The notes: generated from the letters alone by a model not told the origin. DNA of 64,000 nucleotides from Candidatus Bathyarchaeia archaeon (GCA_049969855.1 JBMFOB010000001.1:1-64000), one strand, 5' to 3'. Counted from the first letter of the stretch, positions 20,586 to 60,297 are shown. Program-made: numbers and translations.

Positions 20586-21650
20586 ATGAATAAGACTGCG
20601 GTCATATTTTCATCAAAATACTATCAACATAATCCAGGCAGAAGCCACCCGGAATCAGCAAGACGCCTTAAAGCAATAGTCAACGAATTAAAGAAAGGAC
20701 AACTCTCCAGAAGCAAAAATTGGCAGTTTGTGGAACCAGAAAAAGCCAGCATAGAGAATGTTAAATTGGTTCACGAGATAGAATACATCAGATTTATTGA
20801 TGCTGTTTGCAAATCTGGAGGGGGTCTTTTAGATTCGGAAGACACAGTGGCTTCACGGAAAAGTTTTGAGGTTGCGCTTTACGCCGTTGGCGGAACATTG
20901 AAGGCAGTTAACCTTGTCATGGACGGCAAATTTGAAAATGCTTTTGCTGCGGTTCGCCCTCCGGGTCATCACGCTGAAAGATTTCGTGCTTTTGGCTTTT
21001 GCATATTCAACAATGTTGCCATAGCCGCAAAGTTTTTGCTCAAAAAATTCAGTTTAAAAAGAATTTTGATTTTAGATATAGATGCGCATCATGGAAATGG
21101 CACGCAAGAAATTTTCTATGAAACAGACGAAGCCTTATACATAAGCTTGCACCAAGACCCCCGCATTTTTCCAGGGACAGGATTCATAGATGAAGTTGGA
21201 GAAGGCAGAGGCTTAGGCTACAATGTAAATATTCCACTTCCATTCCGAACAGGCGACTACGTATATTTGAGAGCTATAAGAGAGGTTGTTGCGCCAATAA
21301 TAAGAGAATACAAGCCCCAATTCATGCTTGTGTCTGTTGGTTTAGACAGTCACTACGCAGACCCCGTTGGTAATCTTTCCTTGTCAATGTTGTGTTATCA
21401 AGAAGTTTACGAAACAATAGTTAACTTGGCATCAAAACTATGCGACGGTAAGCTCGTGTCAGTTTTAGAAGGAGGCTACAGCCTCAAGTTTGTTGGAAAA
21501 ATAGCCGCAGCAATCGTTGCAAAAATGAGTGGAACCGCTTATACGGTAAATGAAAAGGCTCCAGCAACCAGCAAACATCGTGAAAGGAAAGGCGAGAAAA
21601 TCATAGGAGAAGTGAAAAAAGTTCAGATAAACTTTTGGCATATAAATTAG
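20586..21650 (+). CDS. Histone deacetylase/acetylpolyamine amidohydrolase family
   Basis: HPES..RL, RPPGHHA, GFCIFNN, DIDAHHGNGTQ, LEGGY. Confidence 0.93.
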   Translation: MNKTAVIFSSKYYQHNPGRSHPESARRLKAIVNELKKGQLSRSKNWQFVEPEKASIENVKLVHEIEYIRFIDAVCKSGGGLLDSEDTVASRKSFEVALYAVGGTLKAVNLVMDGKFENAFAAVRPPGHHAERFRAFGFCIFNNVAIAAKFLLKKFSLKRILILDIDAHHGNGTQEIFYETDEALYISLHQDPRIFPGTGFIDEVGEGRGLGYNVNIPLPFRTGDYVYLRAIREVVAPIIREYKPQFMLVSVGLDSHYADPVGNLSLSMLCYQEVYETIVNLASKLCDGKLVSVLEGGYSLKFVGKIAAAIVAKMSGTAYTVNEKAPATSKHRERKGEKIIGEVKKVQINFWHIN

Positions 21651-21686
21651 AAAATTTGAATGGGCATGTTAGAAAGCGTGTGGGGT

Positions 21687-21869
21687 TTATTCTATCACTT
21701 GTATTGCATTTTCTGGACATTGAGCTTCGCATGCTCTACATACCAAGCATTCTTCAGGTTTAACTGGAACAGATTTTCCATCTTTTATTTCGTAAACTCC
21801 TACTGGACATGTGTCAACGCAGGTGCCGCAACCCGTGCATTTATGATTGTCAACTACTATTTTCACCAT
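21687..21869 (-). CDS. 2x[4Fe-4S] ferredoxin
   Basis: CTGCGTCVDTCP and CLVCRACEAQCP. Confidence 0.93.
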   Translation of the reverse strand: MVKIVVDNHKCTGCGTCVDTCPVGVYEIKDGKSVPVKPEECLVCRACEAQCPENAIQVIE

Positions 21870-21937
21870 GCGTGGTCCTCCTCTCTAACTAGATTTTCAT
21901 TGAAAGTTAAGCAGTAGAATAAAAGCGTTTAGGTTCA

Positions 21938-23671
21938 TTAGCGGGTTTCTTCACGTAGTCTTAATAGAATTCCATTAATTGTCGTTTCAACCCGCTCTTT
22001 TCTATGCTGGTAATCAGCCAGAAGCTTTCGGTAAGCTTCCAGCGAAAGTTCGCCTCGGCTGTGGCGAGCCTCTATGCTTCGGCTGCTGGTTTCAACCTCA
22101 TTTATTTCGGTTTCTGCAACCTCAAGCTGTCGCATTAAATCTGCATACAAACCGCCGGCTGCACGCATCCTTTCTTTATATTCTGCCAAACTCTTAGACA
22201 AACTGTTTAGACGTGTTTCTAAAGTTTTTCTCTGCACCTTATACCGGCGTCGAGGAATCTTTCCTCGGCGCACTCTATTTTCAAGAGACTCCAAATCCGA
22301 AACTATTTTTCTCTTTTCCTCATAAGCGTTTACGAAGGATTTAATGTCTTCTGGACGAATCCTTACAGTTGCAGCTGGCAAAGGAGCAGCAACTCGAACA
22401 GCGACTTTAGATTTTTTCCAAACAGCGACAACAGCCAACCCGAAAACTGCCAAAGCCCACATTACCAACGTGGGACGAAAAGATAACCATAAAGGGTTAA
22501 ATTCATACTTGATTTGCAGAACATTCTCTGAAGGGAGAGCACTTTCTAGATAAGTAACGCCTTGTTTATCTATTGTTACAGCCTCTTGGAAAACGCTTCT
22601 CGATATGTAGCAACTACCAATTAAAATATTTTCAGAAGTTACGATTCTTGCACCTTCTGGCAAAGTGAAACCTATTGAAGCTGTCTCAACATAATAATTC
22701 ACGTCTTTGAGTAAAAGTGATGACGCATTGAAATTGTTAGCCCCTTCTTGTGTGTTAATGTAAACTTGGCTAGGCAAAGAATATTTGACAGAAAACCTTG
22801 TAGACTTATAGCTTTCCAACGCCAACGAAAATGTGACTTTATAACTATTCTTTCCAGCATCAACCAATGCAACATCTGACATTTTCCTTCCAAACTGGTC
22901 TTCGGCGATTGGGTTAGAAGCGTTTGGAGGCAAAATCACGTTTACATATGTTATGTTGCCAGGTGATTTGCTTGATATATAATAACTGTCTAAGCCTTCT
23001 ATTTCGCCTAAACCGCCTATTGTAATTTCACGTTTCAACTCTTCAACATCAAACAATTGCAACTTATCACCCGTATAGGAGAAAGTTACATTGGCGGGCG
23101 AATAGGCAAAGGCAGATAACACTCTAGAATAAGTTGATGCGTTGACAACTCCATCGTCTTTTGCGACCATTACATTACTTGCGCCTTCTGGCAAAACAAT
23201 TGCGATACTACAGTTGTCCACGCTTTCTGTAAAAACAGGATAAGCTGGAAAATCTAACGTAAAGTCCGACTGCGAAACTGTGAAAAGATCATTTGAAAGC
23301 AAAAAAGCAACAGTGAACACTTGCGGCGGTCCTTGCGTAAGGTTTACTTCGACACCGTAAAAACCAATTCTATTCTCTAAGGGAACATTAAGTTTTACTG
23401 GAAAAACATTATTTGAGTCATAGGCTACGCATTTGAGGATATGTGAACCGTATTTGTATGGAAATCCCATGAGAAAATTGTTAGGCGCTTGCCCAGCAAA
23501 TTCGATGGTGTCATTTATCAAGATATAGCCATTATACAAAATTTCAACTGTGTGATTAACATTGGCTATACTGCTACCAGTTTGAGCAACCGCCAATTTA
23601 ATGTTCAACGAAAAGAAGGCGATAAAAATTAAAATAGCTGTTATTGCAAGTGCCGAAGATATCTTCTTCAA
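21938..23671 (-). CDS. Ribophorin I (OST1/RPN1)-like single-pass membrane protein with cytosolic coiled-coil
   Basis: Signal peptide, duplicated beta-rich lobes with LPEGA motifs, LPPNASN...DQFG, one TM helix, helical C-terminus; TTG start at 23671 with GGAGG upstream. Confidence 0.62.
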   Translation of the reverse strand: MKKISSALAITAILIFIAFFSLNIKLAVAQTGSSIANVNHTVEILYNGYILINDTIEFAGQAPNNFLMGFPYKYGSHILKCVAYDSNNVFPVKLNVPLENRIGFYGVEVNLTQGPPQVFTVAFLLSNDLFTVSQSDFTLDFPAYPVFTESVDNCSIAIVLPEGASNVMVAKDDGVVNASTYSRVLSAFAYSPANVTFSYTGDKLQLFDVEELKREITIGGLGEIEGLDSYYISSKSPGNITYVNVILPPNASNPIAEDQFGRKMSDVALVDAGKNSYKVTFSLALESYKSTRFSVKYSLPSQVYINTQEGANNFNASSLLLKDVNYYVETASIGFTLPEGARIVTSENILIGSCYISRSVFQEAVTIDKQGVTYLESALPSENVLQIKYEFNPLWLSFRPTLVMWALAVFGLAVVAVWKKSKVAVRVAAPLPAATVRIRPEDIKSFVNAYEEKRKIVSDLESLENRVRRGKIPRRRYKVQRKTLETRLNSLSKSLAEYKERMRAAGGLYADLMRQLEVAETEINEVETSSRSIEARHSRGELSLEAYRKLLADYQHRKERVETTINGILLRLREETR

Positions 23672-53831: not shown

Positions 53832-54260
53832 ATGCAGCCAAAAACACTAAAGGGAAGAAGAATCGTTGAGGGACACTGCAAAGCAGAAGCCCTCGTATCC
53901 AATAAACCAATAAGTTTTCTTGGAGGAGTAGACCCAGCTGACGGAAAAATAATAGAAAGAGACCACGATTTATATGGAGAGTGCATAAAGGATAAGGTTT
54001 TGTGTTTTCCAAATGGACACGGCTCAACAGTCGGTAGCTACGTGTTATATTCCTTAGCTAAGAAAAAATGTGCACCAAAAGCCATAATCAATCAGACCGC
54101 TGACCCTGTTGTTGTGGTTGGAGCCATAATAGCGAACATTCCCATGGTGGACCAAATAGACATTAAACAGATAACAACAGGCGATGTGGTTGAGGTTGAC
54201 GCATATAAGGGCTTTGTTAAAATTTGGAAAGGGAAAGGGGCAAAGCAAGCATGTATTTGA
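53832..54260 (+). CDS. Aconitase X swivel subunit (DUF126); probable mevalonate-5-phosphate dehydratase small subunit
   Basis: ISFLGGVDP..G, GSTVGSY, GAIIA.IP; ATG at 53832. Confidence 0.87.
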   Translation: MQPKTLKGRRIVEGHCKAEALVSNKPISFLGGVDPADGKIIERDHDLYGECIKDKVLCFPNGHGSTVGSYVLYSLAKKKCAPKAIINQTADPVVVVGAIIANIPMVDQIDIKQITTGDVVEVDAYKGFVKIWKGKGAKQACI

Positions 54261-55426
54261 CAAAGGAAGAAGAACACATATACGACGGCGAGTTTGGCTG
54301 GGCAAACGAAATATGCATGAAAATACTTGTCCGTCTGGGCGAACTTTTCAAAGCCTCAAAGCTTATTCCAATAAGTTCCTCCCATGTTTCAGGAGTTTCT
54401 TACAAAACCTTAGGGGATGCACCAACAGAATTCCTGAAAGCTCTGGCGGACGCTGGCGCAAAAGTAAAAGTTAAATCAACACTAAATCCTCAAAGCCTTG
54501 ATTGCGAATTTCTCTGCAAAAGGCTTCCATCCAATTTATGCGAAAAACAGTTGGATGTTCTGAATTATTTTGAGAAGATGGGTTTTACGCAATCATTGAC
54601 ATGCACGCCATACTATTTGGAAAAGCAAAAAAGAGGTGCTCATCTGGCATGGGCTGAATCATCCGCAGTGATTTATGCAAATTCTGTCATTGGAGCATGG
54701 ACAAACCGTGAAGGGGGACCAAGTGCTCTTGCAGCAGCAATAATAGGAAAAACACCAGATTATGGAATACACCAGCCTGAAAATAGACAACCAAAGGTTT
54801 TAGTGAAACTGGAAAAACCATTAACAAAAGAAATAGAGTTTGGCGCCCTGGGAATTTTTCTCGGCGAAATCTTGAAAGACGAAATTCCAATAATACAAGG
54901 TTTACAAAAAGCTTCAAAAGACAACCTAAAACAGTTGGGAGCAGCCCTCGCATCTGCTGGAATGACAAACATGTTCTACCATAAAGACACAAACACAAAA
55001 ATCAGCGAAGTTGAAAAGATAAACGTGCAAGCTGAAGACTTGAAAAGAACCATTGAAAAACTAATCACAACATCCACACAAAAACCAGACCTAATTTTTA
55101 TAGGATGCCCCCACTGTTCCCTAAATGAAATCAGACAAACAGCAGAGTGGATAGGCAATAGAAAAATCAAAAACAAAACAGAATTTTGGGTTTGCACATC
55201 ACACCACATAAAAGAAAAATCCAAAAAATATGTGGAAAAAATAGAAAAAAGCGGAGGTCACGTTCTCACGAACACATGTGCCGTTGTAACATGGACAGAA
55301 AAGCTAGGAATAAAAACAATAATGACAAACTCCGCAAAAACAGCCCATTATGCACCCACACTAAACAAGGCAGAAACAATACTTGCACCACTAAAAGAGT
55401 GCATAAAAAGAGCTTGTATGGGATAA
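54251..55426 (+). CDS. Aconitase X catalytic subunit (DUF521); probable mevalonate-5-phosphate dehydratase large subunit
   Basis: MYLT.EE, TCTPY, WAESSA, TNREGG, GCPHCS, TC.VV, TNSAK. Confidence 0.88.
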   Translation: MYLTKEEEHIYDGEFGWANEICMKILVRLGELFKASKLIPISSSHVSGVSYKTLGDAPTEFLKALADAGAKVKVKSTLNPQSLDCEFLCKRLPSNLCEKQLDVLNYFEKMGFTQSLTCTPYYLEKQKRGAHLAWAESSAVIYANSVIGAWTNREGGPSALAAAIIGKTPDYGIHQPENRQPKVLVKLEKPLTKEIEFGALGIFLGEILKDEIPIIQGLQKASKDNLKQLGAALASAGMTNMFYHKDTNTKISEVEKINVQAEDLKRTIEKLITTSTQKPDLIFIGCPHCSLNEIRQTAEWIGNRKIKNKTEFWVCTSHHIKEKSKKYVEKIEKSGGHVLTNTCAVVTWTEKLGIKTIMTNSAKTAHYAPTLNKAETILAPLKECIKRACMG

Positions 55427-55472
55427 GGTTTATTCGAGTGAAAAAGCATCTTGCATGATGCCACAAAAGAAA

Positions 55473-55547
55473 GCTCCGGTAGTATAGCCCGGTCAAGTAT
55501 TCCGGCCTTTCGAGCCGGAGACGCGGGTCCGAATCCCGCCCGGAGCA
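55473..55547 (+). tRNA. tRNA-Glu(TTC)
   Basis: GCTCCGG/CCGGAGC acceptor, CCGGC-CTTTCGA-GCCGG anticodon arm, GCGGG-TCCGAAT-CCCGC T-arm. Confidence 0.92.
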
Positions 55548-55555
55548 CTCCAAAT
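55534..55555 (+). repeat. att-like core copy 0 (tRNA-Glu 3' end + CAAAT)
   Basis: TCCCGCCCGGAGCACTCCAAAT, identical to 58452-58473. Confidence 0.9.
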
Positions 55556-55691
55556 CTGAGCGTATTTTAGGCGTATTTTGGTTAAAAAAGCTCAATTCGA
55601 GCAGTTTCTAAAAGAGGCTAAAATTAGAACACGAATTTACCGGCAAAAAATAATGCTACTAATAATCTACTATGAACTTTCATAACATAGT

Positions 55692-55967
55692 CTAGCATCG
55701 ATGTGTAGAATTTCTTAATAACTCTTTTGCTTCGCGATAATGGTATAAAAGCAATTTACCTTTCTCTGTTATTTCGTAAACCACACGGTTTTCTTGCTCA
55801 AGTTCCCTTATTAGATCCAACTTCATTAACAAGGTCATGTATTTTTGGAGTTGGCTAAAACTCACATTGGCTCTATACATTATATGCGTTTTTGTAATAG
55901 TCTTTCCTGTTTCAATAGCCTCTAAAATTTGAGCACATATTTCTAAGTGTGATCTTCGCATCGACAT
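55692..55967 (-). CDS. Winged-helix DNA-binding protein (cassette 1)
   Basis: RRSHLEI...IL...TKTHIMYRANVS...Y...L...LI...YEITEKG archaeal wHTH. Confidence 0.85.
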   Translation of the reverse strand: MSMRRSHLEICAQILEAIETGKTITKTHIMYRANVSFSQLQKYMTLLMKLDLIRELEQENRVVYEITEKGKLLLYHYREAKELLRNSTHRC

Positions 55968-56117
55968 TGTTGATTCCTTTTTCTTATAGAAGATAATTCA
56001 TTAACAATATTCTGTAATAGTGTTCCATAATGTTTATTATCAGAAAGCTTCTTTTAAACTTTTGCAGATAGTTCCTGGTCGGGATTATCTGTCAAGGTAC
56101 CATATTAAATATGTTGT

Positions 56118-57164
56118 TTATTTTAACAAGTTCTGAGTTTTTACTCTTAATTCTTTAACTGACAATATTTCTATATCAAACATATCTTTGAAGGAAGTTG
56201 CTCTTTTCTTAGACTCTTCTCCGGCGTATACGTATACATCGCCATCCCTTATCTTCCTTGAGTCCAGAGTTCTATCAAATCCTTGAAACGCCCCGCCCTT
56301 GGAACAAGCATATGCGGCAGCACTTACGATTGGTTCTCCACTAAGATCAGAAATACGTATTCCTTCAATGTCTATAAAAATTATGGGATGTGCAAGAAAG
56401 TTATCTGGAGGAATTTCTTGTTTGCTGTACCATCTAATTTTTGATAAAACTCCTTGATCAAGAAATCTTGTTTCAACAGGAAAATCGTAGTTTCCCCACA
56501 CCTCTTCTATGTTTTCGGGTGTTAGCCACAATTTTCTATCCCAAAGCTTTTTCTCCGTTAAATAAGTCAGCATATCCGCCACAGAAATAAACTCGTTGCA
56601 TTCATCACCCTTTGGATAGATTTTTGGAGTAGTGTGCTCTGTTAAATCGCGCCAAGCTGTAGTTTGTTTACTTGAAAAGCCATCTATTAAGTATATGTTA
56701 GTTTCTGATCGATGCCTGCCACTATACGACCATGCGGTTGTGTAAGAAAACATAGGAGTTAGAGAACGAAGAAATTTCATTGTAGGAATTTCTTCTATGG
56801 GACAACCATACCCTCCAACGGAGACTGATTTTATATCATTAGGTGGAAGGACCACATATGAACAAAAAATACTCTCAATAACATCTTGAAGTTCAGTCAC
56901 TATTTCATCACAAAATCTTATGGCTTTTGCATGACCTATTTCCTTCCATAGGGTGCTATGAGAATAAACAAGCCGTTTTGTTGGGACATTAAATTTCTTT
57001 ATAAGATTTTTCCGCGAATTATGATAATTTGATTTAAAATCTTCTTCTTTTCCGTTCTTAATAATCACGCCAATACCAAGAGGAGTGAAGAAAACTGTTT
57101 CTTTTTGTTCTTCAACTTTCTTCCAACGAGAAAATTCGCCGACATCAAAGGCTGCAATTGTCAT
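56118..57164 (-). CDS. Hypothetical protein, possibly RNase H-fold (DUF3800-like) (cassette 1)
   Basis: Acidic motifs AAFDVGE (N-terminus), LIDG, DE..EFISVADML. Confidence 0.55.
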   Translation of the reverse strand: MTIAAFDVGEFSRWKKVEEQKETVFFTPLGIGVIIKNGKEEDFKSNYHNSRKNLIKKFNVPTKRLVYSHSTLWKEIGHAKAIRFCDEIVTELQDVIESIFCSYVVLPPNDIKSVSVGGYGCPIEEIPTMKFLRSLTPMFSYTTAWSYSGRHRSETNIYLIDGFSSKQTTAWRDLTEHTTPKIYPKGDECNEFISVADMLTYLTEKKLWDRKLWLTPENIEEVWGNYDFPVETRFLDQGVLSKIRWYSKQEIPPDNFLAHPIIFIDIEGIRISDLSGEPIVSAAAYACSKGGAFQGFDRTLDSRKIRDGDVYVYAGEESKKRATSFKDMFDIEILSVKELRVKTQNLLK

Positions 57165-57232
57165 AATTTACATTGAGCTTTCCTTCAAAATAAATTTTTC
57201 ATTATTGAAATGAATGCCCAGTAACAGGGATG

Positions 57233-57346
57233 TTTGAAAACCCAACTGCACTGAGCATATTTTGTGGTAAACTTGAGCGCAAATTCTGCTTCGGACATTC
57301 CAAATTAGAGCTTATTTTAGCCAACAAAGCTCGATTTTGGCAGTTT
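57233..57346 (+). repeat. Degenerate junction repeat copy 1 (right arm + decayed tRNA core + left arm)
   Basis: ATATTTTGTGGTAA..GAGCGC..TTCTGCTTCGGACATT-CCAAATTAGAGCTTATTTTAG (18/21 vs 55550-55570) and AAAGCTCGATTTTGGCAGTTT (17/21 vs 55587-55607). Confidence 0.72.
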
Positions 57347-57424
57347 GTATGCTAGAAGCCCAAATAACAAGACTACAGTAAGCTTTAAGATTTCTATTGT
57401 TGGATTGAATATGGAGGTATTTGA

Positions 57425-58351
57425 ATGGCTGTAAGTAAGCTAAATCGAGTCCCAGTTCGTCAGGTTTGGAAAAATGAAGAAAAAGACTTTACGCCATGGC
57501 TTGCGAAGAATATTGAAATTCTAGGAGAAACTCTTGGAATGCCACTTTCCGTCGTGGAGAAGGAAACTGATGTAGGTGAATCTTTTGAGGCAGATATTCT
57601 TGCGGAAGGTAAGGATGGCATACCAGTGGTAATTGAAAATCAATTTGGGAAGACAGACCATGATCACTTAGGAAAACTAATTACATACTCCACAAACTTG
57701 GAGGCTAAAATAGCTATATGGATATGCGAAAATCCTCAACCAGAGCATGTAGCAGCAATTGATTGGTTAAACAAGAACACTTCAGGCGATATATCCTTTT
57801 ACTTAATCAAACTCGAAGCTTTCCAAATTAATGGTTCTCCGGTGGCACCACATTTTTCTATAATCTCTGAACCAAGCAAAGTAATAAGAGAAGCCGGCGA
57901 AATGAAAGAAGAGCTTGCAGAAAGACATATCAAAAGACTTGAGTTTTGGAGACAACTTTTAGAAAAAAGCAGTCTGGACATCTTCTCAAACGTGTCGCCC
58001 AGCAAGGATCACTGGATAGCAGCAGGCGCTGGTAAAAGCGGGCTCTCATACAATTATGTTATATTAATGAATTCTGCGAGGGTCGAGTTCTACATAAGTA
58101 CACCGGATGCTGCAAAGAATAAGAAAATATTTGACGAGCTGTATAAAAGAAGACAAGAGATTGAAAAAGACTTTGGTGAAGAGTTGGAATGGCAACGTCT
58201 CGATGACAAAACAGCGTCTCGTGTAGCAAAAACAGTTTCGCAAAAAGGATTGATGAATGTGGAGGAGTGGTCAGATATTCAAAGCAAAATGATTGACGCT
58301 ATGCGTAGACTTGAAAAAGCAATAAGCAAGCACATAAAAACAATAGGTTAG
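57425..58351 (+). CDS. NucS-like PD-(D/E)xK nuclease + DUF4268 domain protein (cassette 2)
   Basis: E.DFTPWL, ADILA, VIENQ...TDHDHLGK..TY; C-terminal IE..FG.ELEW.RL..K.ASR. Confidence 0.82.
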   Translation: MAVSKLNRVPVRQVWKNEEKDFTPWLAKNIEILGETLGMPLSVVEKETDVGESFEADILAEGKDGIPVVIENQFGKTDHDHLGKLITYSTNLEAKIAIWICENPQPEHVAAIDWLNKNTSGDISFYLIKLEAFQINGSPVAPHFSIISEPSKVIREAGEMKEELAERHIKRLEFWRQLLEKSSLDIFSNVSPSKDHWIAAGAGKSGLSYNYVILMNSARVEFYISTPDAAKNKKIFDELYKRRQEIEKDFGEELEWQRLDDKTASRVAKTVSQKGLMNVEEWSDIQSKMIDAMRRLEKAISKHIKTIG

Positions 58352-58399
58352 GAACAGAAAAATAGAAAACCCATGAATAATAATATTAAACAATTAGAG

Positions 58400-58488
58400 T
58401 TTCAAACCCCGCAATGCTCAGAGATATTTTACTGGTAATTTCGTGCGCCGTTCCCGCCCGGAGCACTCCAAATTTAGGTTTATTTTAA
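58400..58488 (+). repeat. Junction repeat copy 2 (right arm + perfect 22-bp core + left arm)
   Basis: TTTACTGGTAATTTCGTGCGCCGT-TCCCGCCCGGAGCACTCCAAAT-TTAGGTTTATTTTA. Confidence 0.9.
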
Positions 58489-58531
58489 GCAGGTTTAGTG
58501 GCGAAATCCTCATTTGATTTAGAATTGGATA

Positions 58532-58783
58532 TTAGTAGACACGTTTGCGATGGCCCACAACTAACAAAAATACTTCATTTTTCTTAACTTGATAAAGAAC
58601 TCGGTAATCCCCTATTCTTAAAGAGTAAACGCCTTTCCATTCGCCGCGTAAAGGCTTTCCTACGTAAGGGTTAGTCTTTAATATTTTGATCTCTTGAAGT
58701 ATCCGTACTTGAATTTTTCTGTCTAAAGCTTCAATGTTCTTTAAGAAACGCGGCGTAAACCGAACTTCAAATTTCGCCTTCAA
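58532..58783 (-). CDS. RelE/ParE-family toxin (cassette 3)
   Basis: F.K....L...NPY.GKPLRG...G.YSLRIGDYRVLY....VGHRK.VY. Confidence 0.92.
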   Translation of the reverse strand: MKAKFEVRFTPRFLKNIEALDRKIQVRILQEIKILKTNPYVGKPLRGEWKGVYSLRIGDYRVLYQVKKNEVFLLVVGHRKRVY

Positions 58784-58976
58784 GGTTTAACTCTCTTACA
58801 AGCTCATCCAATGGTTTAGCCTTGCCCTCTTCAACCTCTCTTAAGGCAATCTTCAAATCTTTGACAAGTTTCTTGTCTTGCAGGACTTCAAGAGTTTCTA
58901 ATAGCTCATCCATTAAACTGGCAGCTTTTGTTAGCAGTTCTTTCTCTTCCGCTGTTAAAAGAGGCATACCTCTCAC
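58767..58976 (-). CDS. Antitoxin of RelE pair (cassette 3)
   Basis: Acidic 69 aa, ELLETLEVL.D..L...L..A..EV.EG; overlaps toxin gene upstream. Confidence 0.8.
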   Translation of the reverse strand: MRGMPLLTAEEKELLTKAASLMDELLETLEVLQDKKLVKDLKIALREVEEGKAKPLDELVRELNLEGEI

Positions 58977-59045
58977 AAACCTTCAGAATATAAAATCTCC
59001 GCAGACATTTTAACTCTTACTCTTAAAATCGGATTAGCAAATGTG

Positions 59046-59086
59046 TTTACTGGTAATTTTGTGCGTCGTTTCCGTCCTGGGCACTC
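59046..59086 (+). repeat. Outermost junction repeat copy 3 (right arm + decayed core; attR-like)
   Basis: 35/41 identical to 58428-58468; similarity stops after GCACTC, 5 nt before the thrC stop codon. Confidence 0.85.
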
Positions 59087-59091
59087 TGCTT

Positions 59092-60297
59092 TTATAGTAA
59101 TGTGCTTGCATTTTTTGCCAGCACGGGTATTTCGTTCTTTTTTATATTTATAAGATCAAGGTATTTCATAGCATTACCGGTTAAATACAAAAGCACACTT
59201 TCATTCTTATCAATTGCACCGTCGTTTCCAAGTTTGTTTAATGCTGGGAGGGGTGCGGAGGCTTCTGGACATGCATATATGCCGTTCTTGAGAAAAATTT
59301 TCATCGCGTTGATTATTTCTGTGTCATCTACTGCTACTGCCATGCCCTTCGTTTCCCTTATCGCCCGCAATACAAGATAGCTTGCGTAGGGACGGGGAAC
59401 CCTTAAACCCGCAGCTATAGTTTCAGCGTTTTCCCAAGCTTCTTTCACTTCCGCCTCTCCACTATTATATGCCTTGACTAATGGGGCACAACCAGAAGAT
59501 TGAACTATTATTAGGCGTGGAATCTTTTCCGTCCAGCCGAGCTCAATTAAATCTTTGAAACCTTTCCATAAACCTATGATTCCTTCGCCTCCGCCTGTCG
59601 GGAAAATTATGTTGTCTGGCAGATTCCAATTGAATTGTTCTGCGATTTCAAATGCCATGGCTTTGTAACCTTCGTATCTATATGGTTGCTTGTTAGTTGA
59701 AACGTCCAGCCATCCGTAATCTTTTCCAAATTTTTTCACCATTTCTGCGGCGTCATTTATCAAACCGTCAACAAGGTATACCTTGGCGCCCATGGAAATG
59801 CATTCTTTAATATTGCTTTCCGGCACATCTTTCGGCATAAAAACATAAACTTCCATTCCAGCCTTCGCTCCATAAGCAGCCAAAGCTGCAGCAGCATTTC
59901 CAGCAGACGGAAGGGCAACACGGTTTATGTTTAACTCTTTAAGTTTGGAAACTGCCACAGCCATACCTCTGGCTTTAAAGGTTCCAGTTGGAAGCCGCCC
60001 ATCATCCTTCAAAAACACGTTTGAAACTGCACTGTTATCTTTCCGAAATTGGAGTATAGGCGTATAGGGTTCTCCCAAAGAAACTATATTATCAGGCGAT
60101 GACAGCGGAAGTAATTCTTTGAACTTCCAAAACGTATCTGCTCTATTCTCTAAATCACGTTTAGAAATCTTCTTGGCAATTCTTGATAAATCATATTGGA
60201 ACAGAAGTGCTCCGCCACATTTTGGGCATATTGTTAAAATGTTGTCTGATGGGAAAACTTTTCCACATCTGCTACATTCAGCCCCAAGTATGAACAT
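59092..60297 (-). CDS. thrC: Threonine synthase-family PLP enzyme
   Basis: N-terminal Zn ribbon, PTGTFKARG, SAGNAA, PTGGG, CPEAS, LTGN. Confidence 0.87.
   Translation of the reverse strand: MFILGAECSRCGKVFPSDNILTICPKCGGALLFQYDLSRIAKKISKRDLENRADTFWKFKELLPLSSPDNIVSLGEPYTPILQFRKDNSAVSNVFLKDDGRLPTGTFKARGMAVAVSKLKELNINRVALPSAGNAAAALAAYGAKAGMEVYVFMPKDVPESNIKECISMGAKVYLVDGLINDAAEMVKKFGKDYGWLDVSTNKQPYRYEGYKAMAFEIAEQFNWNLPDNIIFPTGGGEGIIGLWKGFKDLIELGWTEKIPRLIIVQSSGCAPLVKAYNSGEAEVKEAWENAETIAAGLRVPRPYASYLVLRAIRETKGMAVAVDDTEIINAMKIFLKNGIYACPEASAPLPALNKLGNDGAIDKNESVLLYLTGNAMKYLDLINIKKNEIPVLAKNASTLL

Follow-up and report, generated by a model that had tools for sequence, protein, structure and literature searches.

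Among the closest described counterparts of the locus reported here are elements that are found at tRNA genes. Cis-mobilizable elements (CIMEs) and their tandem accretion at tRNA genes have been defined, in the consulted part of PMC5704250, for streptococcal islands of integrative and conjugative elements and integrative and mobilizable elements. The tycheposon-type islands of Prochlorococcus encode a tyrosine recombinase themselves, and the consulted part of the corresponding work (bioRxiv 10.1101/2020.12.28.424599) regards pieces without an integrase as remnants. For archaea, the consulted sections of a review (PMC8371274) trace integrase-less elements, which lie at tRNA genes and are sometimes arranged in tandem, back to the loss of an integrase. 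Here we analyze a 64,000-nucleotide stretch of DNA (the window, with positions counted from its first letter) from a Candidatus Bathyarchaeia archaeon (GCA_049969855.1 JBMFOB010000001.1:1-64000), in which three small units lie in a row between a tRNA-Glu gene and thrC, each bounded by a left arm and by a right arm followed by a core, that is, a copy of the tRNA 3' end. An original prediction made from the sequence had taken this interval for an integron-like array of integrase-less defense cassettes. We conclude that it probably consists of tandem, non-autonomous, CIME-like cassettes that are integrated at the tRNA-Glu 3' end and belong to a family of elements encoding an Xer-like integrase, termed Int-M. 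New in this work are a motif (M) found in both arms, the empty site and varying occupancy in congeners, the occurrence of such units across the family, and Int-M with its partner open reading frame (ORF).

Like CIMEs as presented in the consulted part of PMC5704250, the window units have attL and attR flanks, lack integration and transfer genes, stand in tandem at a tRNA 3' end and have autonomous relatives that use the same site. The flanks are direct repeats of the target 3' end, with four core copies accompanied by arms and an empty site in a congener (G003). No integrase or transfer gene was found in the units, as judged from Pfam searches of all five cargo ORFs of the window, from the whole contig that holds it (C1) and from about 20 units of relatives; the att sites held in common with autonomous elements comprise M and the core only, not the spacer of the left arm. 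The window units differ from CIMEs in being archaeal, far smaller (0.6-1.8 kb) and equipped with a left-arm spacer unseen in autonomous elements. In addition, window-type cassettes outnumber the autonomous elements, one set of arms occurs with cores of different tRNAs (Leu, Glu), and no conjugative partner is known for the cassettes. With tycheposons, as far as the consulted part of that work describes them, the array shares successive integrations at one tRNA that push older elements inwards, partial tRNAs as separators, degenerate remnants and adaptive or defense cargo, whereas here the integrase-less units are the common form and have conserved arms on both sides. A family of small units with conserved arms is not described in the consulted sections of PMC8371274, and our literature search, which covered its sources in part, returned no report that matched such cassettes, either from Bathyarchaeia or from other archaea, which is not proof that there is none.

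The likeness to integrons put forward in the original prediction proved to be loose. It consists of an ordered row of small cassettes with recombination sites between them and a presumed tyrosine recombinase; unlike an integron, the array has no adjacent integrase, attI or common promoter (Pc), is anchored at a tRNA gene and carries cargo on both strands. Its junctions are tRNA-derived cores plus arms and are not attC-like, with the three in the window folding no better than shuffled sequences (z 0.27, 0.15 and -0.80). As in Islander-type islands, the tRNA is regenerated and a displaced 3' fragment lies at the far end, but no integrase gene is present within the island (Pfam on the cargo; no PF00589 match on C1). 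Integration occurs at tRNA 3' ends and not at dif, which sets the units apart from Xer-exploiting elements (IMEX). Miniature inverted-repeat transposable elements (MITEs) are small non-autonomous derivatives of insertion sequences that keep only the enzyme-recognized ends and are more numerous than the autonomous form. In contrast to these, the units have no transposase and no target-site duplication, are site-specific at tRNA genes and carry genes; the inverted M motifs flank the junction and not the unit, the unit ends are direct repeats of the tRNA core, and the empty site shows no extra duplication. The array is not an integron; it fits the definition of CIMEs and of tandem accretion, save that mobilization by the integrase of the autonomous element is something that we infer.

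The window belongs to a 134-kb contig (C1) of the genome labeled G000, a 1.28-Mb bin of 49 contigs whose nearest named relatives are Bathyarchaeota/Thermoproteota metagenome-assembled genomes (MAGs); the bin has 3.8% contamination, with a second strain visible (contig C34). The array occupies positions 55549-59086 (Table 1), and its units A, B and C measure 1750, 1168 and 618 bp, in agreement with the predicted 1.75, 1.17 and 0.62 kb. As had been claimed, the tRNA-Glu 3' end (17-22 bases) is found again at ~57284, 58452 and ~59070. At 58452-58473, all 22 positions agree with the tRNA end plus CAAAT, copy 1 is degenerate (67% over 24 nt), and copy 3, also degenerate, is together with its right arm 85% identical to the copy at 58428 over 41 nt. 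The predicted 22-bp repeat therefore stands, but the empty site in the congener shows that its CAAAT is part of the element and not of the tRNA. A right arm of 20 nt precedes each of these copies, as expected from the prediction: TTTACTGGTAATTTYGTGCG occurs at 58428 and 59046 without mismatch (expected 0.03; at least two matches in 0 of 100 shuffles), and the weaker arm of unit A at 57260-57279 was picked up by the nhmmer profile. The left arm, CACTCCAAAT..TATTTTA, follows copies 0, 1 and 2 (55546, 57296 and 58464; any match in 0 of 100 shuffles); its placement was correctly foreseen, but it exceeds the ~25 bp of the original pattern, measuring ~100 bp in each of the first two units and ~41 bp in unit C. 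The arm next to the tRNA in unit A also adjoins the tRNA in the congeners G001, G002 and G004. Core copy 3 forms the outer end of the array and has no left arm, with the thrC stop codon following 5 nt later, again as described before. The tyrosine recombinase domain PF00589 was not matched anywhere on C1, which extends to the entire contig the claim that array and window lack an integrase; the six matches of the genome are all on other contigs. An Rfam scan of 55300-59300 returned the tRNA as the sole RNA family. The repeats and arms are far beyond chance, and the array is real and well delimited, with three integrase-less units that have conserved arms.

Table 1. Array, cargo and flanking features at the tRNA-Glu gene (positions in the window)
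Feature	Coordinates	Strand	Evidence
tRNA-Glu(UUC), integration target	55473..55548	+	ARAGORN and Rfam RF00005 (61.5 bits), 3' end at 55547/8
Core copy 0 = tRNA-Glu 3' end, TCCCGCCCGGAGCACTC	55534-55550	+	
Unit A left arm, ~100 bp, M at far end (CACGAATTTACCGGCAAA, 55630-55647)	55551..55653	+	nhmmer left-arm profile E 6e-27; pattern match
Unit A right arm (degenerate M, TTTTGTGGTAAACTTGAGCG) and degenerate core copy 1 (57282-57300)	57260..57300	+	nhmmer right-arm profile E 2e-11; alignment
Unit B left arm, ~100 bp	57301..57400	+	nhmmer left-arm profile E 4e-15; 75% identity to unit A arm over 40 nt
Unit B right arm (M, 58428-58445) and perfect core copy 2 (58452-58468)	58428..58468	+	pattern and nhmmer
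Unit C short left arm, 41 bp, M-like end TTTAGTGGCGAAA (58494-58506)	58469..58509	+	72% identity to unit A arm over 64 nt; read from sequence
Unit C right arm (M, 59046-59063) and degenerate core copy 3 (59070-59086)	59046..59086	+	pattern, nhmmer, empty-site comparison with G003
Unit A cargo 1, 91-aa winged-helix protein	55692..55967	-	Pfam HTH_45 3.6e-20; NCBIfam Sso10a family, 77 bits vs cut-off 60
Unit A cargo 2, 348-aa protein, N-terminal RNase H-like fold (predicted)	56118..57164	-	structure model
Unit B cargo, 308-aa DUF4268 protein, weakly NucS-like N-terminal part	57425..58351	+	Pfam DUF4268 4e-36
Unit C toxin, RelE/ParE family, 83 aa	58532..58783	-	Pfam ParE_toxin 1.3e-14; TIGR02385 RelE_StbE 41 bits vs cut-off 27.9
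Unit C putative antitoxin, 69 aa, overlaps toxin start	58767..58976	-	position and overlap
AcnX-family gene, chromosomal flank upstream of tRNA	54224..55426	+	Pfam AcnX 7e-138; syntenic in relatives
thrC (threonine synthase), chromosomal flank	59092..60297	-	NF006050, 491 bits vs cut-off 303

Comparison of the interval between tRNA-Glu and thrC in four congeners (G001-G004) shows that number and content of the units vary, which was the outcome anticipated for mobile cassettes. The site is empty in G003, where the tRNA-Glu 3' end continues straight into thrC (...GCACTC, then TGCTTTTATGG) with neither arm and no duplication besides the core, as had been proposed for the unoccupied state. A single cassette is present in G002 (tRNA, left arm, toxin-antitoxin (TA) pair, right arm, perfect core, thrC); G001 shares this layout with most of the toxin deleted, and in G004 the TA pair and a 444-aa gene are enclosed by one left and one right arm. 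A blast search of 40 relatives returned no DNA match to the DUF4268 unit.

Contigs from four public metagenome runs vary in the same way; as they represent related strains (identity about 90-95%), they demonstrate variation and not excision, and contigs cannot reveal rare forms. In X1, the run richest in this stretch, a contig of depth 51 joins 55547 to 58535, placing the TA unit directly behind the tRNA in a more abundant related strain, while contigs of X3 and X4 join 55640 to 58536 (left arm to TA unit). Units A and B occur together in X2, X3 and X4 at 92-96% identity, with the A/B junction exchanged for 146 other letters. In X1, one contig bridges the tRNA to unit A (55524-55707) and another of 2786 bp spans units A and B with 0 differences. 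The Logan contigs of all four runs end at the left arm and at core 2; the unit B/C junction (58465-58535) is bridged by no listed contig of the runs, where uncovered parts, such as 58465-58535 in its exact form, are not proof of absence. Runs X2-X21 contain small shares of the stretch only. A second contig of G000 with acnX and tRNA-Glu (C34:3739-5111; 73% identity over acnX) ends 74 bp past the tRNA in a different, G+C-rich sequence. It is probably from a co-binned related organism, and its end just behind tRNA-Glu indicates that the site breaks assemblies.

A near-palindromic motif of 18 nt, M (CACRAAWTTACYRGYAAA; near-palindromic center TTACCGGTAA), is common to the two arms and has opposite orientations on either side of the tRNA core. 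In the right arm, M reads toward the core and stops ~5-10 nt short of it, and the sequence between the two mimics the T-stem of the tRNA in its 5' strand (GTGCG ... CCCGC). Tyrosine integrases that target tRNA genes usually cross over in the T-loop, and this mimicry makes such a crossover likely here. In the left arm, M lies inverted at the far end, behind a conserved spacer of ~85 nt. The resulting order of M, core and inverted M in the junction between units (right arm, core and left arm; ~95-190 bp) means that it is built like an attP. Across genomes the arms are 70-95% alike and enclose unrelated cargo. Derivation of the left arm from the decayed 3' end of a zinc-ribbon (C15-type) integrase gene was considered and rejected, as there was one 11-nt match only and shuffled sequences did at least as well in 13 of 15 comparisons. 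At eight loci in as many family genomes (L043, L050, L051, L054, L057, L062, L064 and L067), M is preceded by a conserved ...GGCGCCGGGGAAGGGATTTCAG, sometimes after an M-like half-site; these sites have no Rfam match and no tRNA, and may be another type of attachment site or a variant of the left-arm end.

The distribution of M (pattern with at most one mismatch) was examined in 201 genomes of the family and 301 genomes sampled across the class. It was matched in 86 family genomes, with 159 matches in comparison with 19 for a reversed control pattern, and in 83 of the class set. Among 30 automatically fetched M loci, 22 were in att-like contexts and eight look like chance or in-gene matches. 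We found about 20 complete units (0.5-5.3 kb) in 14 genomes, located behind tRNA-Leu(GAG/CAG/UAA) or tRNA-Glu and organized as tRNA, left arm, small cargo and right arm with a core fitting that tRNA, often repeated. Arm profiles and tRNA searches at the loci with paired M matches, in the spirit of the suggested scan for the junction, thereby revealed the same arms around unrelated small cargo at both tRNA types. None of these ~20 units has a PF00589 protein or a tblastn match to any of five integrase types. Their cargo includes four PIN pairs, a DUF4258/DUF2283 pair, NosD-like proteins, HtrA with an ABC transporter and a PQQ-repeat protein. The RelE pair of unit C is kept in the congeners G002 and G004 and, at tRNA-Glu, in G022, G076, G095 and G118. 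Comparable arrays are located on long contigs (G095:C9, 490 kb; G145:C33, 508 kb; G022:C2, 197 kb). A TIR protein is found beside a junction in G069.

Arms are also present elsewhere in G000: on C21, a left arm stands behind tRNA-Leu(GAG), and C23 carries a junction of right arm, core and left arm. On C21 (19279-21795), the cassette-type left arm behind the tRNA is followed by a 510-aa Fe-S/CBS protein and Nuo-like genes; on C23 (1-4821), Nuo-like genes precede the right arm, a degenerate Leu-type core and the left arm, and the same junction adjoins the nuo operon in G002:C22 (L088). Housekeeping genes may have come to lie between arms, perhaps via rearrangement between arrays. A 5.2-kb unit in G105 (C10:37116-42512, L075) has its left arm behind tRNA-Leu(GAG) and a right arm with a Glu-like core, which suggests recombination between arrays at different tRNA genes. 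In G102:C3 (L097) and G069 (L083, L084), M and another core, which is degenerate, come directly after tRNA-Leu without any cargo in between; these junctions look as if a deletion had joined two M sites.

The six PF00589 matches of G000 represent four types, and nhmmer profiles of both arms found nothing adjoining any of these loci. A link between M and an integrase was found in relatives. At 11 loci (two in G138, and one each in G142, G198, G066, G083, G124, G149, G147, G004 and G063), a tRNA 3' end is directly followed by M, then by an ORF of ~180 aa without any family match and, on the same strand, by Int-M, a 318-aa Xer-like integrase. In contrast to host Xer, Int-M scores below the cut-off of the XerA model (173.5 vs 220 bits) and is patchy, occurring in 13 of the 201 family genomes; 10 of the 12 carriers besides G000 also have M matches. 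Its targets are tRNA-Leu(GAG, CAG, UAG, UAA), tRNA-Thr(CGU) for a subgroup of 55-60% identity, and one tRNA that ARAGORN did not call. The Int-M element of G138:C1 is 11.4 kb long, carries cargo and has the right end TTTACCGGTAAAGTTGGGTGGGGG-TCCCACCCCCCGCAC, which comprises M, T-arm mimic and tRNA-Leu core, so that M is present on both sides of its attachment site. The cassettes on G022:C2 combine the right-arm variant of this element with the usual cassette left arm. In G000, the 6-kb contig C33 opens in frame with the last 105 residues of Int-M (90% identity to that of G142), with the rest of the gene and tRNA-Leu(CAG) missing from the assembly. The expectation of a tyrosine recombinase elsewhere is thus supported by Int-M, which has M at its own att sites and is represented in G000 by just this fragment. 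We propose Int-M, from its sequence and gene context, as a newly identified candidate integrase family for the cassettes.

Two further integrase types were rejected as the cognate enzyme. The C13 type is present in 34 of the 201 genomes, patchy and often broken, and is not discriminating, with M in 19 of the 33 carriers other than G000. The zinc-ribbon C15 type, in 174 genomes, is too common to discriminate, and its elements have no arms. C15-type integrases target the same tRNA-Leu core and adjoin arrays in G153, G007 and G175; no far-end att site was found within the 6.3 kb of the C15 element. In G000, zinc-ribbon tyrosine integrases of 419 and 372 aa, with 43% identity to each other, neighbor large replication-type ORFs on C15 (1538-6460) and C36. 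The one on C15 directly adjoins a tRNA-Leu(UAA) gene that contains an intron and was missed by ARAGORN without intron mode. The zinc-ribbon type often has at least eight matches per genome in the family. On C13 of G000 (21525-23079), tRNA-Leu(UAG) is followed by a fragment of a zinc-ribbon-type integrase gene and then by an inverted copy of the tRNA-Leu 3' end (22045-22085); 42 bp further on lies an integrase of 318 aa that represents a third type.

Indirect evidence for movement of the units comes from the TA cargo of unit C. Its identity to G000 is 87.8% in G095, 87.7% in G076 and 86.2% in both G118 and G022, in comparison with 85.9%, 84.8% and 81.8% in the congeners G002, G004 and G001. For the chromosomal acnX, the corresponding values are 88.8% (G002), 82.8% (G001), 82.5% (G004), 74.3% (G095), 74.0% (G022) and 72.4% (G076). 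The TA unit is about as similar in other genera (86-88%) as in congeners (82-86%) while acnX falls from 89% to 72%, which suggests that small units move between lineages. In addition, the ~85-nt spacer accompanies unrelated cargo at two kinds of tRNA and occurs in no integrase locus, which argues that the cassettes propagate as a lineage of their own and not through repeated decay.

Each cassette keeps both halves of an attP-like site, with M, T-arm mimic and core on one side and the inverted M on the other, and has no recombinase. In our reading, its arms are those of Bathyarchaeia integrative elements that encode Int-M and the ~180-aa partner behind a tRNA and M. We propose that a circular cassette would recombine through its core with the T-loop and 3' end of the tRNA gene, with an Int-M-type integrase supplied in trans by a resident or visiting autonomous element, and each arrival would regenerate the tRNA and shift older units toward thrC. 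Catalysis by Int-M, the circular intermediates, this order of arrival and present-day activity are what we infer from the combined observations. We regard the interval as a tandem row of non-autonomous, CIME-like cassettes of the Int-M element family with reasonable, if incomplete, confidence. More tentatively, the units could be part of a class-wide population of MITE-like, gene-carrying mini-cassettes with a composite attP, actively moved in trans by the rare Int-M into tRNA-Leu, tRNA-Glu and perhaps other tRNA genes, and retargeted by swapping the core between constant arms. Such a system would provide tRNA-anchored gene capture, filling the role of integrons with different parts; we consider this broader scenario possible but doubtful.

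Several observations weigh against integration of the cassettes by Int-M. No circular junction or same-strain excision was seen in contigs, which cannot show rare forms, and core copy 1, expected to be the youngest, is the most degenerate. The ends of the insertion-deletion difference between G000 and G002 align at the left-arm M motifs and not at the cores, so that serial insertion at the tRNA requires either a later 60-bp deletion in the arm of unit C or recombination at M. Int-M of G000 is a contig-edge fragment only, from a contaminated (3.8%), two-strain bin. Among the loci seen (tRNA-Leu, tRNA-Thr and one uncalled tRNA), no Int-M lies beside tRNA-Glu, which makes the enzyme for Glu-type cores an extrapolation. 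The left-arm spacer is absent from all 11 integrase-bearing loci, where M directly follows the tRNA, and G095, which is 98% complete and has three cassettes, showed none of three integrase types at the thresholds used.

Some of the same evidence would also be expected if the units were inert scars of larger Int-M-type (or other) elements after internal deletion, i.e. strict CIMEs that differ through deletion and homologous recombination between arms. Several cores and arms in the window are degenerate, the 11.4-kb element of G138 shows that autonomous elements with the same motif and core carry cargo, the remnants of tRNA, M with degenerate core, and left arm in G102 and G069 point to deletions between M sites, and the cassettes of G095 exist without any tested integrase type; in the consulted sections of PMC8371274, integrase loss after integration is the explanation for integrase-less archaeal elements. 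We nevertheless find inert scars unlikely, as the spacer is common to unrelated cargo, two kinds of tRNA and many genera while being absent from the 11 integrase loci, identity of the TA cassette does not track host divergence, and genomes with M outnumber those with Int-M by 86 to 13 of 201. Turnover could alternatively proceed without an integrase if the arms acted as portable homology and cargo was swapped between relatives by homologous recombination after DNA uptake. Arms that are 70-95% alike around unrelated cargo would suit such swapping, as would the G000/G002 difference that ends in arms instead of cores and the pairing of a Leu-type left arm with a Glu-like right core in G105, which shows recombination between arrays. 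However, the empty site of G003 has neither arm, so that at least the first insertion needs the tRNA core; the arms have diverged and measure just about 40 and 100 bp, and a tRNA-derived core closes every unit, which is what site-specific integration would produce, leaving integrase-free swapping improbable as the general explanation. It is very improbable that the array or the order of its units is a metagenome assembly artifact in which strain variants were joined at repeated arms. Contigs of all four runs do break at the left arm and core 2, units B and C are bridged by no listed contig, and the bin includes the acnX-tRNA-Glu contig of a second strain (C34), yet X1 contigs connect the tRNA to unit A and cover the first two units without a single difference, three further runs also link these two units, and comparable arrays exist on the long contigs of G095, G145 and G022. 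Integration of CIME-like cassettes at the tRNA 3' end therefore remains our preferred interpretation.

The cargo that had been proposed for the window units (a winged-helix protein with an RNase H-fold protein, a NucS/DUF4268 nuclease and a RelE pair) was confirmed by Pfam, PADLOC, NCBIfam and structure comparison (Table 1). The 348-aa protein of unit A had no match in PADLOC, NCBIfam or the Pfam copy used, which was without PF26630; it has 68 homologues, and PF26630 is the precomputed Pfam label for the family. Its AlphaFold2 model (pLDDT 94.6) aligns over residues 1-213 with RNase HII/HIII (VIA; Z 9.0-9.3, rmsd 3.3-3.9, 141-162 aligned residues), and Foldseek matched 2dff with E 4e-4, which identifies the N-terminal domain, at the level of the model, as RNase H-like. 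A homologue lies again beside a small helix-turn-helix (HTH) gene in a distant Bathyarchaeota MAG (L094:3338-5014), without arms. The HTH gene and the gene for the 348-aa protein may form a two-gene module. For the protein of unit B, the match to the PADLOC candidate system PDC-S11 is full-length (5e-118), and that to NucS has an E-value of just 0.007. The putative 69-aa antitoxin of unit C has no family match in Pfam or NCBIfam. The description of the cargo as defense genes holds for unit B, through the PDC-S11 candidate, and loosely for the TA pair of unit C; unit A is unassigned in this respect, and cassettes of relatives also carry NosD-like, HtrA/ABC and PQQ-repeat genes.

Bathyarchaeia are abundant uncultured archaea of sediments and hot springs, and their means of gene exchange are almost unknown. 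The arrays suggest how these archaea swap toxin-antitoxin and defense-type genes. With a defined junction, a motif and a candidate integrase with its partner, mobility becomes directly testable in vitro, and the arms allow cassette content to be read from metagenomes. Mobility of the units, if real, would account for the way in which strains differ in TA and defense genes at fixed chromosomal sites.

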